Positions 45,491 to 62,246 of a stretch of 64,000 bases of DNA are shown here, in pieces; position 1 is the first letter of the stretch; the number at the start of each line of letters is the position of its first letter. The translations under genes were made by a program, and so were the position numbers. The stretch covers positions 96,410,001-96,474,000 of the forward strand of contig JANJGN010000007.1 of the NCBI GenBank assembly GCA_026770705.1. Reading direction: 5' to 3'. The notes under the pieces are model-generated. The model made no database searches. It saw nothing but the letters and a program-made list of their open reading frames with translations, and had not been told where the DNA came from. Source of the DNA: Isurus oxyrinchus. Taxonomy: Eukaryota.

Positions 45491-46814
45491 TTGGTATGTC
45501 AGCACGAGAGTGGAAAACATAACTAAGCGAGTGAATAGTTTCTCTTCTGATTCTACTTGCTGCATTTACTTTAAATTGTGTACTTACTTTATCTGCAGTT
45601 TTTGAAATGTTATGTAGACGCTGTAAGTCCACAAGTTAACTGTCAAAAGTATTGCCGTTCGGCATTCAATGTTATTTCCACCTGGTGTCTCATGAGAAAT
45701 TATCCTATTGCACTATCACTATTTGCAGAAGAACAACAAAGCTCTCCTCGGGTCCTGGCCAAATGGATCAAAGAACATCACTGACAGAGTTATCTGATCC
45801 CTCTTCCAATGATTGTGGAATCCTGTTGTGCTTTTTTGCCAATCCCAATTGCCCTTGCTGACAATAGTAATTACATTGAAAAATTACTTCCCTGCGAGGC
45901 GGTGTGGGACGAGTTGTGTTTCCAGACAGCGAAGTATAAACCTTGCTTTATTCGCTGATTCTTCCTGGCTCATTTATTGCTCCTTGATATTATTTTTGTT
46001 TCAACACAATCTAGCCCTTAAATCCAGATGTGAATAGAAAAGGAAATTAAGCCGAGAGCAGAACCTGTTGCCTATTCCCTACCGCCCGTTTCGCGCTACC
46101 GGGGAATTTGTATCTCCCGCAAAAATTCCTGTTTTTACCAATATTCGAGAAACTCGATTATTGGTTCCTGACCGACCACAGGGCTCCGATTAAGGATTAT
46201 CTTGTCAATGCGAAAACAACACTAAATCCAACCCTTTCCAAAGCTGCACAAAATTCAGACAGCAGAAACAGCAAATACAAATATGAACACGAATCAGATG
46301 CCTGGTCCTCGACGGCTGGGGCCTGTTTGAGCAGAACTTGAGTTTTTGCAACCTATTTCATCCGCACCTTCTTCAATAGGGTGAAGGGTAGCGACCGCTT
46401 CTAAGTTAATGCTTGTCGCCTATTCTTAAAAACTGGTATCTTACACCTTTCTCCCAGAGCTGCTGTTGTTACTTTGTCCGTTGTTGATGTCATGGTAATT
46501 GGCTTTTAGTGAGATATACACAGAAATAAAAAGGGTTCCGTATTAGGACACCAGTATCACGTGGCTCTTGGTTCCGTGTACATGATGTCAATTATTTGTT
46601 TTCCCACCTTTAACTGAGCATACTCTGTGCTCTTATCCTTATAGTGAGGCTTTACTGTTTTCTTTGGCCCTGTCATATCCAGAGCAGCGTAGGTCAGCTG
46701 AGTGTCGGGTAGTCTTTGCTTGGCCTGTGAAAACAATGTTTGGGATTATAATTAGTTCGATATTTTACATGTCTGTAGTCTAAGGTTAAGCACAGTCATT
46801 GGGACCAAAAATAA

Positions 46815-47245
46815 ATTCTTGCATTTATATGGCGCTTTTCACGACCTCAAGCCATCCCAAAGCGTTTTACGGTCAAGCCAACACCTGTGGTGCAGTTAGC
46901 CAATGTTGTAATTTGGGAAACACGGCAGCCAATCTGGTAACAGCAAGCTCCCACAGACAGCAATATGGTAATAATAACCTGTTTCTGCGATGATGACTAA
47001 AGGATAAACATTGACAAGGACACCAAGGATAACGCCCCTTCGAAATCCTGACAGGGGATCAACTTTTGAAGATTAACACGGTCTCAGTCGAACATCCATC
47101 TGAAAGACGGCACATCGGACATTGCAGACTTGCCTCATGACTGCACAGGAGGATTAACGTATATACTTGGTGCTTAAGCCTCCGGATGAGCTATGTCCCA
47201 CAACCTTATTACCCCGAGGCCAAACTGAGTTCCGGCTGACATAAT
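46815..47245 (-). mobile_element. Deu-domain SINE overlapping the end of gene A exon 6
   Basis: Deu core and 3' tail gcgccatataaatgcaag on the minus strand, with a degenerate tRNA-like head near 47240. Confidence 0.65.
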
Positions 47246-47471
47246 AGCGAGAGCCTCGCAGAATCAGTGTTAAAGACAACAGAGCACCCAAGTGTATGAA
47301 AGCTATTTTTAAGGTGTTAATGACAGATATTCGGTATTTCTCTGTTCGGCTCTTCAAACCTACCTCCATATAAACTGTACTGTCTTGACGTTTAGGCCTT
47401 GGGGCTTTCTGGGAATTAGTCGTATCGAGTGCAGCATAAAGCGCCAACATTTCGGCATCACCTTGAATGGA
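47154..47471 (-). CDS. Gene A exon 6: cytoplasmic exon with ALYAAL (ITIM-like) and TVYMEV (ITSM)
   Basis: Acceptor ttgtctttcag|TCC in phase 0, in frame with ORF 47154..47450. The 3' end is uncertain because of a possible donor GAG|gtaggt at 47364/47363. Confidence 0.72.
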   Translation of the reverse strand, partial: SIQGDAEMLALYAALDTTNSQKAPRPKRQDSTVYMEVGLKSRTEKYRISVINTLKIAFIHLGALLSLTLILRGSRYYVSRNSVWPRGNKVVGHSSSGGLSTKYIR

Positions 47472-47940
47472 CTGAAAGACAATAAAGAAATTTTGTCATG
47501 TTGCTAGGACAGATATTCTCGGCCGATCGCTCTTTGTGAAGCCCGATGCGCGTTGCCCCGAAAACGGCAGCTCCAGGGTGCACCCATTGAATGAACAGAT
47601 AGCATATCATTCACTGCTGCCCGCTGCATCCCGGCCTGAGCTCCATATCTGCGGCACCAGCCTCCAGTGGGCGGACTGAGTCTTAGGAACAAAGATAGTA
47701 TCCAACTGTGGGAGAAGATAGGAACATTGGAACAGGAGAAGGCCATTCAGCTTATCGAGCCTGCTTCGCCATTCAATAGGATCATGGCTGATCAAACACT
47801 TCAATGCATTTACCCACACGATCCCCATAACCCTTTGCGTTACTGTTAATCAGAAATCTATCAATCTCTACCTTAAACACACAATGACTGAGCTTCTACA
47901 GCCCTCTGGGGCAGAGAATTCCAAAGATTCACAACCCTCT

Positions 47941-49710
47941 GTTGAACTCAAGTCCGGAAGGCTGTAAGGTGCCTAGGCGGAAGATGAGGTGCTGTTCCTC
48001 CAGATTGCTTTGGAATTCACTTCAACATTGCAGCAGGCCAAGGACGGACATGTTGGCATGAGAGCACGGTGATGTGTTGAAATGGCAAGCGGCAGGAAGG
48101 TCTGGGTCATGCTTGTGGACAGTCTGGAGGTGTTCCGCAAAGTGGTCACCCAGACTGCGTTTGGTCACCCTATTGTAGAGGAGACCACATTAGGAGCAGC
48201 GAATGCAATAGACCAAATTGAAGGAGGTATAAGTGAAGCGCTGCTTCACCTGAAAGGAGTATTTGGGCCCTTAGACAGTGGGGACGGAGGAGGTAAAGGG
48301 GCAGGTGCTGTACTTCCTGTGATTCCATGTGGAGGTGCCATGGGCACGGGATGAGGTGTTGGGGGTGATGGAGGAGTGGTCCAGGGAGTCCTGGAGGGAA
48401 TGGTCCCGACGGAATGTGACGGGGAAGGTGAAAGGCAGATGTGTTTGGTGGAGGTATCATGCTGGATTTTCCGGAAATGGCGGAGGATGATCTTTTGAAT
48501 GCAGAGACTGGGCAAAAAGTGAGGACAAGGGCTACCCTGTCACGCTTCTGGGACAGAGGGGAATGCATGGGCAGAGGTGCGGGTGATGGGTCGGAAAGGC
48601 TGAGGGCCCTGTCAACAACTGTGCGGAGGAAACCTTGGTTAAGGAAGAAGGAAGATATGTCAGAGGAACTGTTTTGGAAAGTGGCATCATCAGAACAGAT
48701 GCGATGGAGGTGAAGGAACTGAGAGAATGGGATGGAGTCCTTACAGGAAGCGAGGTGTGAGGAACTGTAGTCAAAGTGGCTGTGGGACTCAGTGGGATTG
48801 AAGTGAATATTGGTGGACAGTCTATCACAAGAAATGGAGGCAGAGAGGTCAAGGAAGGGAAGGGAAGTGTCAGAGATGGACGATGGGAAGGTTAGAGGGT
48901 TGGAAATTGGATGCAAAATTGATACATTTTTCCATGTCCAGTTGAGAGCATGAAGCTGCACCGAAACAGTCATCAATGTACTGGAGAAAGAGTTGTGGGA
49001 GGGAGTCTGAGTGGGACTGTGATAAGGAATGTTCTCCATACCCTTTAAAGAGACAGGCATAACTGGGACCCATGCAGGTACCCATAGCCACACCTTTCAT
49101 TTGGAGGAACTGAGACGAGTTGAAGGAGAAATTGTTTAGTAAGGGAACAAGTTCTGCCAGATGGAGAGTGGTGGTAGCTGGGATTATTCGTGCCTCTCTT
49201 CAAAGAAAAAGCGGAGAGCCCTCAGATCATTCTGGTGGGGGATGGAGGTGTAATGGGATTGGACGTCCATGGTGAAGGGGGTGGTTAGGGCCAGGGAACT
49301 GGAATTTGTTAAAATGACGTCAGAGGAATCGCAGATGTAGGTTGGAAAGGACTGGAAATGAGGAGAAAGAACGGAATCAAGATAGGAAGAAATGAGTTCT
49401 ATGGGGCAGGAGCAGGCTGACATGATTGGTCTGCCAGGACAGTCCTGTTTGTGGATTTTGGGGAGGGGGTAGAAGTGGGCTGTCCGACGTTGGGAGACTA
49501 TGAGCTTGGAAGCTACAGAGGGAAGATCTCCAGAAGAGATGAGGTCAGTGACAGTCCTGGAAAAAATGGCTTGATGTTCGGTGATGGGGTCATGGTCCAG
49601 GGGGAGGTAGGAAGAAGTGTCTGTGAGTTGGTGCTCAGACACTGCGAGGTAGAGGTCAGTATGCCAGAAACCAACAGCACCACCCTTATTGGCAGGTTTG
49701 ATGACAGTCA
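47941..49710 (-). mobile_element. Penelope-like retroelement, broken RT + GIY-YIG ORF, in gene A intron 5
   Basis: IKPANKGGAV, LPKIHKQDCPGRPI, KGVAMGTCMGPSYACLF, LQYIDDCFG and SCKDSIPFSQFL motifs. Confidence 0.92.
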
Positions 49711-50947
49711 CACTTATGTTACAACAGAAATAGGAAAATAATTTAGATAATTTTATGAAATTGGGCTTCAGGCATAATTAGAAAATTTCTGCATCAATTA
49801 TAGGCTGGCTGGAACTGAATTAGCACAGCGTGACAGAAAGGAGCCTAGCCAGTTATCAAATCACTTCTAATGTTCAGACACTACCATGTGGAAGGACAAG
49901 GGCAGAAGATAACTGGGAACACCACCGCATGGAAGTCCCCTCCAAGTCACTCACCATCCTGACTTGCAAATATATCACAGTTCCTGGAACTCTCTCCGTA
50001 ACAGCACTGTGGGTGTACCTGCACCACATGGTACAGAGGCTCAAGAAGGCAGATCACCACGACCATCTGAAGGGCAATTAGGGATGGGCAACAAATGCTG
50101 GCCCAGCCAGCAACGCCCACATCCCATGAATGAATTTTAAAAAATGGATAGATGAGGCGACTGAAGGGACTGTCAATTTCTCGGCCCTTTGCCATTGTGG
50201 TTTTTCATATTGCAGCAAATTCATCCAAAGTTCCACTTCCATGGCCTGGGCACATGCGGAAACAATAAATAGCAACCTGGCATCTTCAGCTCGTGACATT
50301 CTGCAGGATTTTGTACAAACTCTCAAGCTACGGGGGCGCTAGCAAGGCCAGCATTTATAGTGTAATCCTGGATGCCTTGAGACAGTGGTAGTTGATATGC
50401 CAGGATATTTCAGAAGGAAGTTAGGAGTTAGCTCAAGGTGTGGGCTAGAGTCAAGGACAGGCTGTTCAAAGATAGCAAATGTGCTTCGTTGTCAGACATT
50501 AATGGACTAGTTGGAGTTTTAAGGGAATCCAACAACTTCATGGTCATTTTTGCTGCTATTGTATTTTGCTTAGATAGGTTTTTGAACCTGGATTCAAAAT
50601 ACCTTGGATTTGAAATCCAGTGCTCTGGTTTAGAATTAGCTAATGCACATTGTTCCCTGTGTACAGGAGAATAAAACAGTCTTATTTTCACTATTCATTA
50701 CAATCGAAGTTAAGTTTTATGCAATATGCTTATTGACAACAGCAGATGGCAGCTACAATTCAGTGCCTCTGATCTGTTGACAATGATTGTTACCAGAGCA
50801 CAAGTGCTGAATTCACATTGTGTTATTTCGGATGAATTTGTGCAGCATTGCAATAGAACATGAAAACTTAGTGTGGTTAATAGATTACATCACCGTTGCG
50901 CATATGTTTGCATCTGAGATACATTAGAATGGATTGTGGAAACATAC

Positions 50948-50991
50948 CTGCAGTACGGGGTAATCGGATTTTTCACCATTCTTCTGCTCAC
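50948..50991 (-). CDS. Gene A exon 5: cytoplasmic exon 1 (GEQKNGEKSDYPVLQ, ITIM SDYPVL)
   Basis: 44 nt, phase 1 to 0, ttcttattag| and CAG|gtatgt. The phases link the TM exon to the last exon. Confidence 0.75.
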
Positions 50992-51625: not shown

Positions 51626-51736
51626 CGTGATTTTTCTTTGTGACACAACGCTTCGCAATAAAGAGTCCCAGTACCAATAATACGAACCCGCCTCCTGCAG
51701 AGGCAGAAATCAGCAAGAAGCTGGTGATCTGAGCAC
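51626..51736 (-). CDS. Gene A exon 4: transmembrane exon
   Basis: 111 nt, phase 1/1, cttctag| and CACG|gtaaga. GAQITSFLLISASAGGGFVLLVLGLFIAKRCVTKKNH: an uncharged hydrophobic span followed by basic stop-transfer residues. Confidence 0.88.
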
Positions 51737-56915: not shown

Positions 56916-58019
56916 CCTTACAGAGTAACGAATGGTACTGTGCATTGTGGAGGTTCAGCGAGTGTGCAATCTACAAGATGCAATGCAACAACTCACCAAA
57001 GCTCCTTGGCAGCACTTCCCAAACCTGCAACCTCTACCCACTAGACGGACAAGGGCAGTAGATGCATAGGAACAGCACATTTGCGAGTTCCCCTCCAAGC
57101 CAGACACCATCCTGACTTGGAAATATATTGACATTCCTTCACTGTCAGAGTCAAAATCCTGGAAATCCCACCCTAACAGCACTGTGGGTGTACCTACACC
57201 ACATGGATTGCAGCAGTTCAGCTCAGCTCACCACCACTTTCTCAAGGGCACTTAGGGATGGGCAATAAACGCTGGCCTAGCCAGCAATGCCCGCATCCTG
57301 TGAAAGAATAAGGCAAGTCAGTTTTATGAAACAAATTTAAAATGCTGAATTTCTCTTATGTTTAAAGAAACACCTCGGGCTTGATGTATGGTGGTCCCTT
57401 GGGTACATTATTGGTTAAGTGCTAAGTAGCAGAATGTAGTGGTAAAATGATATTTTTGAATGGATCAGGGTTCAAGATTAGAACCAATGCTTTACTTGAT
57501 ATGAGGAGTACAATTTGAAGAGTATTAATTATACAACATTGGTAATGCAGTAAATTATTACAAAGATAGTGAGAGATTTTGGTAATACATAAACTAGAGA
57601 GTAGGGTCACAAATGGTAAGTGCAATTTAATGCAGGCAAAAATTAAGTGTGCAGTTTGTGTGAAAAAATATCGAGGGATGATAATCTGAGGAGCATACTA
57701 AAGCAAAGATAACTAGGAATGAATGGATTAAAAAAATAACTAGGTGCATATAAATCTTTCAAGGTGGCAGGGAAGTTGACAAGTCGATCAAGGAAGCTTT
57801 TGGGAAATTAACTTTACAATAGAAGCATTGAACCATGTTAAATTTTAGAAATATCTGGTTAGTTCTCAGCTAGTGCATTGCATATAATTAATTTTAGGAA
57901 GGGTGTGAAAGCCTTGGAAAAGATGACAGATAATGTTATCCAGGCATTACAGGGTTAAGGATCTTCAACTGTGTTGAGAGATTGGAGAAGCTGTGATGCT
58001 GTGAATACATGAGATTAAG

Positions 58020-59623
58020 GGGATATCTAATCAAGGTATTTGAAGAATATTAAGGTGGATGAATCCCCAGAGCCACATTGGATCTACCCCAGAGTACTGA
58101 GGGAGGCAAGGGAGGAGATTGCTGGGGCCTTGACAGAAATCTTTGTATCCTCACTGGCTACGGGTGAGGTCCCAGAGGACTGGAGAATGGCCATTGTTGT
58201 TCCATTGTTTAAGAAGGGTAGCAGGGATAATCCAGGAAATTAGAGGTGGGTGAGCCTTACATCAGTGGTAGGGAAATTATTGGAGAAGTTTCTTCGTGAC
58301 AGGATTTACTACTATTTGGAAGCAAATGGGCGTATTAGTGAGAGGCAGCATGGTTTTGTGAAAGGGACATTGTGTCTCAATAACTTAATCAAGTTTTTCG
58401 AGGAAAAGACAAAGATGATCAATGATGGAAGGGCCGTGCATGTAATATACATGGATTTCAGTAAAGCCTTTGACAAGGTCCCTTATGGCAGACTGGTACA
58501 GAAAGTAAAGTCGCATGGGATCAGAGATGAGCTGGCAAGATGGATACAGAATTGGCTTGGTCATAGAAGACAGAGGGTAACAGTGGAAGGGTGCTTTTCT
58601 GAATGCAGAGCTGTGAAAAGTCGAGTTCCGATGAGATCAGTGCTGGGATCTTTTCTGTTTGTAGTATACATAAATTATTTGGAGGAAAATGTAACTGGGC
58701 TAATTAGTAAGTTTGCAGATGACACTATGGTTGGAGGAGTTGTAGATAGTGAAGAGGATTGTCAAAGGATACAACAGGATATAGATCAGTTGGAGACTTC
58801 GGCAGAGAAATGGCAGATGCAAATTAATCCAGACAAATGTGAGGTAATGCATTTTGGAAGGTGTAATACAGGCAGGAATTATACAGTAAGTGGCTGAACC
58901 CTTAAGTGCATTGATGGGCAGAGGGATCTGGGTGTACAGGTCCACAGATCACTGAAAGTGGCAACACAAGTGGATAAGGTAGTCAGGAAGGCATGTGGCA
59001 TGCTTGCCTTCATTGGCAGGGGTACTGAGTATAAAAGCTGGGAAGTCATGCTGCAGCTGTATAGAACCTTGGTTAGGCCACACTTGGAATATTGCATGCA
59101 ATTCTGGTCACCACGGTTCCAGAAGGATATGGAGGCATTGGAGAGGGTGCAGTGGAAGTTTATCAGGATGCTGCCTGGTCTGGAGGTTATTAGCTATGAG
59201 GAGAGGTTGGAGAAACTCAGATTGTTCTCACTAGAGTGACGGAGATTGAGGGACAACTAGATAGAGGTTTACAAAATTATAAGTGGCATGGACAGAGTAG
59301 ATAGTCAGAAGCTGTTTCACAGGGTGGAAGAGTCAATTACTAGGGGACATCTATTTAAGGTGAGAGGACAAATCTTTAGGGGAGATGTGCAGGGCAAGTC
59401 TTTTACGCAGAAGATAGTAAGTGTCTGGAATTCGCTGCTAGAGGAGGTAGTGGAAACAGGTACGATGGTGTTTAAGAGGCAGCTTGACAAATACATGAAT
59501 AGGATGGGAATAGAGGGATACGGAACCCGGAAGTGCAAAATGTTTTATTTGACGGACAATATGATCAGCGCAGGCTTGGAGGGCCGAAGGGCCTGTTCCT
59601 GTGTTGTACTTTTCTTTGTTCTT
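58020..59623 (+). mobile_element. Relatively young 5'-truncated CR1 LINE in gene A intron 3
   Basis: ORFs 58040..59668 with QHGFVKG, YMDFSKAFDKV, SKFADDT and LVRPHLEYCMQFWSP, ending in a (ttctttg)n tail. Confidence 0.95.
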
Positions 59624-59988
59624 TGTTCTTTGTATGCAATGTTACGAAAGGTTTATTTGATCAAGTAGGGAGCAACTGTTCTCCAAAAACTGGGTCTTAA
59701 TTTGCAGTCATAGATCTAAAGCAACTGGCAAAATAAAATGTGAGGGGATGTGAGCAGAATTATTTTCTCACCTGAGGTTAATGTTTAAAACATACAATCT
59801 GAAATGTTGTTGGAAGAAATTTATGTCGGGGTTTTTCGAAGACAATTGGACATGTAGGCTAAGGAAATTGATTTGCAGGGTTGTGGGAGAAAGGCTGCTG
59901 AGAGGGTCAAAAGAGGCTGCGCAGGAAGGCTGGGCTAAATGGCCTTTTCCGAAGCTGTAAATTTCTATTTCTATATCAGAACTCTTAC

Positions 59989-60300
59989 CTTTGTTGGGGT
60001 TGGTGAAGATATGAGTGGCTATGGCTGAAATTTGCAGCGCACTGTGAGAGACCAGACAGGTATAGACAGTTGTGGTCCGGACAGGCCGCGTCTCTTGCAA
60101 CCGGCTAGAAGCTTCATAAAGCCCATTGGTGTTGAGTTTAATTATGGTACTTATTCCTGTTATAGTTTTCTTGCCATATTTATACCAAGTGAAGCTGATA
60201 TTCTCCGGGGAGAAAGGAGATGTCGCACACAGAACAGTCAGAGGCGCAGAAGAATCCTTTTCAAGTTGCTGAGTGTTAATTTTCAGTGGAGTTGGAGGAA
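59989..60300 (-). CDS. Gene A exon 3: Ig C1-set domain
   Basis: 312 nt, phase 1/1, tttttctag| and AAAG|gtaaga. Open frame VPPTPLKI...LTVLCATSPFSPENISFTWYK...GLYEASSRL...VYTCLVSHSAL, with C1 hallmarks CxxxxFxP, W and YxCxVxH. Confidence 0.93.
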
Positions 60301-61715: not shown

Positions 61716-62036
61716 CTCCCACGGATAAATTGGACCCCGTTCCGTTTCCAACCGTTTTGCTTCGATGGGTGACAGTACAATAGTATATTCCTGCATCCTG
61801 CACTCTCACATTGATTATTTGAAGAAAGCCGCTGAATTTAGTCTTGAAGCCAATCACTTTCCTGTCATTTTGTCCCGTTGTGAGATATTGATTATCTCCC
61901 TTTTTCCACCAGTAAACATTGACACGCGGACCGTCTTGAAATAAAGGAACCGAGCAATGGAAGGAAACGTTTGTGCCGGTGTTTGTGTTCACACTCTCGG
62001 GGAGCTGAGTGACTTTGACTGACTTTTCACCGGAAC
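61716..62036 (-). CDS. Gene A exon 2: VJ-type Ig V domain
   Basis: 321 nt, phase 1/1, acceptor ccccatag| and donor GGAG|gtaagt. Motifs VTQxP, FHC, YWWK, FLQIINVRVQDAGIYYC, and J-like G strand [10 protein letters not shown]. Confidence 0.95.
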
Positions 62037-62191: not shown

Positions 62192-62246
62192 CTGTGAAGA
62201 TGATCCCCAGAATAGCGAGGCACTGAGTGACAACATTCGCCAGCAT
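62192..62246 (-). CDS. Gene A exon 1: signal peptide (MLANVVTQCLAILGIIFT-G)
   Basis: ATG at 62246, 18 codons + 1 nt, hydrophobic core, donor CAG|gtatct in phase 1. A 155-bp intron joins it in frame to the V exon. Confidence 0.85.

Follow-up and report, generated by a model that had tools for sequence, protein, structure and literature searches.

Gene A of the shark Isurus oxyrinchus raises the question of whether a gene with an antigen-receptor-shaped ectodomain encodes an inhibitory receptor and, if so, through which tyrosines it would act. The gene lies on the minus strand of C7:96410001-96474000 of a 4.98-Gb genome; this whole analysed stretch of 64,000 nucleotides is called the window here, and feature positions are counted within it. 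An earlier note had proposed a checkpoint-type receptor with a TCR-like ectodomain, an uncharged transmembrane segment (TM), and a tail whose three tyrosine motifs (an ITIM, an ITIM-like motif, and an ITSM) recruit SHP-1/SHP-2. We consider it likely that gene A, an intact seven-exon gene for a predicted non-rearranging V(J)-C1 membrane receptor, inhibits immune cells through two duplicated tail modules. As far as sequence can tell, the earlier conclusion of an inhibitory receptor recruiting SHP-1/SHP-2 is probably right, via other tyrosines: the corrected gene model points to Y329 and Y352, both in exon 7, as the candidate key residues in place of the ones named earlier.

The predicted model of gene A has a leader-VJ-C1-TM-tail layout, with GT-AG boundaries, compatible phases, and 372 aa without an internal stop. 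Exon 1 (62192-62246; 55 nt, ATG to CAG|gt, phase 1) encodes a leader 78% identical to that of the Heterodontus homologue P0005. The V domain (Pfam V-set, E = 4.8e-11) is encoded in a single, non-rearranging exon 2 (61716-62036) with a joined J-like end, GNGTGS, and is followed by a C1-set domain in exon 3 (59989-60300; Pfam C1-set, E = 5.1e-10) that has no extra cysteine for an interchain bond. Exon 4 (51626-51736) supplies the TM, which has a run of small residues and a basic stop-transfer stretch and is uncharged, as the earlier note had said, with no charged residue in 51736-51626. Hydrophobic stretches near 57755, 20481, and 7011 were rejected as the TM of gene A because the homologues match 51736-51626. 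Besides the two Ig-domain pairs, the predicted protein has two further cysteines, located in the leader and immediately inside the membrane.

The tail is encoded by three exons. Exon 5 (50948-50991; 44 nt, phase 1 to 0) contains SDYPVL (50951-50968, Y277), and exon 6 (47364-47471; 108 nt, phase 0 to 0), tail module 1, contains ALYAAL (47427-47444, Y293) and TVYME (Y315), the latter abutting the donor. After intron 6 (46725-47363; 639 nt, gtaggt...ttttcacag, first codon GTA), the terminal tail module 2 follows as exon 7 (46557-46724), which lies outside the positions given in the earlier note, had been missed there, and was found by matching P0005 to the window; it begins in phase 0 at the acceptor ttttcacag, and its frame ends at TGA. 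Exon 7 carries LTYAAL (46680-46697, Y329), an ITIM; TEYAQL (46611-46628, Y352), which is ITSM-like; and IMYTEP (46569-46586, Y366). Two AATAAA candidate polyadenylation signals (45947-45978) lie downstream on the same strand. The introns hold repeats, namely a reverse-transcriptase fragment (Pfam RVT_1) in intron 3 (58244-59665), a high-copy element in intron 5 (47700-50140), and about 425 nt in intron 6 (about 46790-47200) that are extra relative to the paralogues. The possibly-RNA runs (contigs of 8/8) gave zero depth over exons 4-7 and listed joints in repeats, and have no bearing on expression or splicing.

Judged by its sequence, gene A is a real, intact gene, and the 115 aa of its spliced tail can be aligned over their full length with RefSeq models of Mustelus (63% identity), Heterodontus (54%), and Heptranchias (53%). 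That it is instead a silent or decaying copy with inactive motifs seems very improbable to us. Many V matches in the cluster contain stops, and genes B and C of the window are damaged, so decay is common there; in gene A, however, every one of the seven exons is intact, as are their splice sites, the reading frame, and the four cysteines of the domains, and identity over exon 7 is 60-70% with the homologues of three other shark genera (67% to P0005 and 70% to Mustelus P0028).

The three motifs first proposed, SDYPVL, ALYAAL, and TVYMEV (47361-47378), all translate on the minus strand, and the tyrosines of the last two are indeed 22 residues apart. The ITSM is lost at the splice junction. Exon 6 ends as ATG GAG|gtaggt, and the GTA at 47363-47361, which had been read as the last Val of TVYMEV, begins with the GT of the splice donor; as exon 7 opens with Ala, the predicted spliced tail reads TVYME|A and therefore has no ITSM there. 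The motif is most likely a splice-site artefact. No consensus ITSM, TxYxx(V/I), was found elsewhere in the predicted spliced tail either, the only candidates being TVYME|A and TEYAQL, which misses the strict consensus because it has Leu at +3. Pattern matching identified the junction between modules in 22 of 42 homologue tails, all of them automatic gene models rather than experiments, and 20 of the 22 join without Val, while Val-Gly is kept at two, both from Heterodontus (P0005 and P0008). An ITSM forms across the junction in four of the 22 because the next module begins with Ile or Val. Two paralogues in the same genome have the donor and the acceptor at the same places, with introns of 213 and 214 nt.

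A true ITSM, TVYMEV, would be restored in a transcript that retained intron 6; the resulting 386-aa isoform would lack the exon-7 motifs and might show SAP-type switching. The frame through the intron is open for 70 codons, some annotated homologues (P0010 and P0016) terminate shortly beyond module 1 and have Val or Ile at +3, and the Val-Gly of P0005 and P0008 would fit such a product. Intron 6 is also the last intron, and its retention would escape junction-triggered decay. Against this stand the strong donor and in-phase acceptor, and the read-through is not conserved, running for only 18 and 31 codons in the two paralogues, where the intron starts align with frame-breaking indels. Intron 6 of gene A contains no polyadenylation signal (AATAAA), and the in-frame GT six bases downstream of its donor that would keep Val-Gly is absent, the only other nearby donor shifting the frame. 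We regard retention as improbable. The other nearby donor, which lies four bases inside the intron, was considered and rejected; with it, the frame is shifted and the exon-7 motifs are lost.

The spliced tail of 115 aa has seven tyrosines (Y277, Y293, Y315, Y329, Y345, Y352, and Y366), two consensus ITIMs (SDYPVL and LTYAAL), and four YxxI/L/V motifs. In 20,000 shuffles of this tail, at least one ITIM arose in 17%, at least two in 1.3%, and at least four YxxI/L/V in 0.8%, so the whole tail is motif-rich beyond chance and SDYPVL alone is not. A similar test, reported in PMC11460946, gave odds below 5% for 41 of 51 known inhibitory receptors.

For conservation, 95 family proteins (search hits numbered up to P0103 and no longer than 500 aa) were considered and 42 tails retained, each with a TM, a tail of at least 60 aa, and at least one YxxI/L/V; of the 53 left out, 20 had no detected TM, 12 combined a charged TM with a short or motif-free tail, and there were 21 others. 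The 42 include isoforms and paralogues, and the counts from these related rows are not independent and, since the rows were selected for a YxxI/L/V, are inflated. In this alignment, two of the exon-7 motifs stand out: Y329 (LTYAAL) is Tyr in 38/42 and part of a consensus ITIM in 28/42, and Y352 (TEYAQL) is Tyr in 29/42, with YxxI/L/V in 27/42 and an ITSM in 7/42. Y293 (ALYAAL) is Tyr in 33/42 (YxxI/L/V in 32/42, ITIM in 15/42), followed by Y315 (TVYME; Tyr in 23/42, ITSM in 5/42), Y366 (IMYTEP; Tyr in 16/42), Y277 (SDYPVL; Tyr in 3/42, ITIM in 0/42), and Y345 (Tyr in 2/42). The closest tail, that of Mustelus P0028 (63%), shows CHYPEQ in place of SDYPVL and PPYAAP in place of ALYAAL, lacks a Tyr where TVYMEV lies, and reads LTYAAL, TEYAEL, and VIYTEP in its exon-7 region. 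Conservation of the tyrosines, which the earlier note had named as a check, therefore holds for ALYAAL at the family level and fails for SDYPVL and the ITSM. ALYAAL can stay as described, ITIM-like and departing from the consensus at -2. SDYPVL conforms to the ITIM consensus and is, on this alignment, lineage-specific. The best-supported motifs are, by the same comparison, LTYAAL and TEYAQL.

These observations are compatible with the following mechanism. Upon ligand binding, a Src-family kinase would phosphorylate Y329 and Y352, which are 23 residues apart, and pY329 and pY352 would jointly engage both SH2 domains of SHP-1, SHP-2, or SHP-2L. Y293 would serve as an additional docking site, and Y315 and Y277 would likely be minor or neutral. 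Bivalent binding by both SH2 domains is described in PMC8631942, which also states that Ala, Val, Leu, or Ile at pY+1 of the PD-1 ITIM favours SHP-1 recruitment and that Pro does not. Both LTYAAL and ALYAAL have Ala at pY+1, which by analogy suggests that SHP-1 can be recruited, and SDYPVL has Pro there. PMC12151841 reports that the SH2 binding sites are conserved across jawed vertebrates, that an SHP-2-like gene occurs from sharks to mammals, and that the PD-1 motif (T/V)EYATI lies 25 residues past its ITIM. Gene A resembles PD-1/BTLA in having an ITIM followed about 23-25 residues on by a TEYA-type motif, a spacing that suits bivalent SH2 binding (PMC8631942 and PMC12151841), whereas PD-1 combines one V domain with a single motif pair, and gene A has V-C1, two modules, and Leu at +3 of TEYAQL. 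Two features of ITIM receptors, (S/I/V/L)xYxx(I/V/L) in the predicted tail and an uncharged TM, are present. What stands of the earlier proposal is a probable SHP-recruiting inhibitory receptor with an antigen-receptor-like V-C1 ectodomain, which the uncharged TM and the conserved tyrosine motifs support; its ITIM, ITIM-like, and ITSM architecture does not stand.

Tail exons 6 and 7 are duplicates of a single phase-0 module, in which about 11-13 residues and an xxYAxL motif are followed 22-23 residues on by a TxY-type site, and some homologues (P0011, P0022, and P0095) have three or more modules. The +3 residue of the TxY site is exon-coded in the terminal module and splicing-dependent in internal modules, and its use as a switch is put forward here as a hypothesis. 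In the broadest form of this idea, cartilaginous fish would own a large family of non-rearranging VJ-C1 paired receptors, apart from SIRP and PRARP, whose tails grow by duplication of a phase-0 exon (ITIM ... TxYxx); the ITSM Val would be coded by the donor GT, and the choice of splicing would switch the ITSM on (if the intron is read through or a donor six bases further along is used) or off (when joined to the next ITIM module). We hold this complete scheme to be tentative and, on the whole, unlikely. The paralogue L007 1378-1870 (C7, about 97.156 Mb) has at least two, perhaps three, serial tail modules with the same donor position. The closest paralogue, L018/L019 (C7:97071735-97083640), has an open V exon (67%), C1, TM, and two tail modules, and a second GT six bases past its module-1 donor would keep TVYAQV as an ITSM.

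Gene A belongs to a large family of cartilaginous fish. Its V exon gave 57 matches at E of 0.001 or less (150 of 185 candidates scored), of which 56 lie on C7, nearly all of them within two clusters (96.4-97.6 and 108.6-110.0 Mb), and many have stops. All 40 relatives from a profile search were from sharks, rays, or a chimaera, and the RefSeq labels on homologues were SIRP-like ("PTPN substrate 1-like" and "SIRP beta-like"), Ig-lambda-like, tapasin-like, or CD276-like. Two members share the window, both on the minus strand. Gene B (34241-31310) is a divergent paralogue (V 41% identical) with open V and C1 exons, and in its TM exon a stop is reached before the donor, apparently via a frameshift. 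Gene C (11325-8560) is a close, broken relative with only the last third of V and a stop in C1; its TM has an Arg near the outer end, as in P0014 and P0015, and it is probably of the activating type. Such TM-Arg paralogues fit, at the level of sequence, a family of paired inhibitory and activating receptors. Another single-exon VJ group (L033, L034, and L037; C21, 100-105 Mb), which lies closer than the C7 family does to SIRP-labelled V domains, has what we take to be an NKp30-like look. The coelacanth protein P0187, of V-C1-TM structure with LLYTTI and TVYAEI in its tail, is a possible bony-vertebrate relative: it aligns with the shark family at an hhalign probability of 99.2 and falls outside the family branch in the V-domain tree, and its search returned only its own cluster. 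In the literature, we found no paper describing this shark family, and papers on PRARP, VJC1, or UrIg, or their supplements, may describe it.

The ectodomain had been called TCR-like, which holds for the V(J)-C1 layout only. The predicted fold of the homologue P0001 is V plus C1 (pLDDT 83.8), and its Foldseek and VIA match lists are full of Fab chains (Z 14.6-14.9 at an rmsd of about 9-10); the Foldseek rows also include TCR chains. Because the matches mix Fab and TCR chains, no family is singled out and the model shows no Ig light, Ig heavy, or TCR preference; that SIRP chains are unlisted does not exclude them. Unlike a T-cell receptor chain, gene A has V and the J-like end in one 321-nt exon rather than in split rearranging segments, no spare extracellular Cys, and an uncharged TM with a 115-aa tail in place of a charged TM for CD3 and a short tail.

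Might gene A instead be the shark orthologue of SIRPalpha, reading CD47 as a "don't eat me" signal? Many homologues carry the RefSeq names "PTPN substrate 1-like" or "SIRP beta-like", and among the PDB sequence matches of P0005, SIRPalpha (2wng) ranks second (E = 5.8e-16). The SIRPalpha tail of paired tyrosine motifs also resembles that of gene A. Against orthology, SIRP is linked to NSFL1C, and the genome places an NSFL1C-like gene on C12 and a second SEP gene on C5, with the gene A cluster on C7. Hits to PF11566 (PSMF1/FBXO7 domain) fall on C1, C12, and C19, not C7. In the V-domain tree (37 rows, midpoint root; six proteins and three loci without a recognisable V motif dropped), the family group (85/94) stands apart from coelacanth, lungfish, and lizard V domains that bear automatic SIRP labels (91/88), both values being below the tool's star threshold. 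A coelacanth SIRP-labelled V matched only C21, not C7 (eight matches; 150 of 254 candidates scored). For CD47, this genome showed no clear match: hits to PF08204 were all weak, generic Ig ones, and PF04549 had none. Such a result does not imply absence. Finally, gene A has one C1 exon between V and TM, as against two in SIRP, which is defined as V plus two C1 domains in PMC12975943, and PMC13262535 places the SIRP family at Tetrapoda. SIRP membership is thus not supported by the sequence comparisons, and orthology appears to us a poor prospect. In common with gene A, SIRPalpha has a J-bearing V with C1, an uncharged TM, charged-TM relatives, and a tail whose several tyrosine motifs are candidates for the recruitment of SHP-1/SHP-2 (PMC12975943 and PMC12324903); the differences are the number of C1 domains, the apparent separate grouping of V, and the position away from NSFL1C.

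Among cartilaginous fish molecules, shark UrIg/UrIg2 (PMC12227049, PDB 9dmx) is likewise an elasmobranch non-rearranging VJ-C1 molecule, whereas UrIg2 carries nine C1 domains and is located next to the Ig/TCR complex; the term "ITIM" is absent from the main text of PMC12227049. UrIg2 (9dmx) is the best PDB sequence match of the gene A family (query P0005), and UrIg-like V domains form a separate branch in the V-domain tree. PRARP combines a single-exon VJ domain, C1, TM, and a tyrosine-based inhibitory tail, as a gene pair with one motif. Gene A shares with PRARP/VJC1 the single-exon VJ, C1, TM, and inhibitory motif, and differs from the PRARP pair in its 56 V matches on one contig and its tail of repeated exon modules. 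PRARP is the likeliest candidate among named relatives. Non-rearranging PRARP and VJC1 genes are the subject of Fu et al. 2019 (pmid 30770416) and Ohta et al. 2019 (pmid 31492741).

The logic of the inhibitory tail itself is already well known. What the preferred reading of gene A as an inhibitory receptor would add is a family in sharks, rays, and chimaera that joins a non-rearranging, antigen-receptor-shaped ectodomain to an inhibitory tail of the PD-1/SIRPalpha type. Such genes bear on the role of the Ig/TCR precursor before rearrangement and on the age of paired inhibitory and activating receptors.
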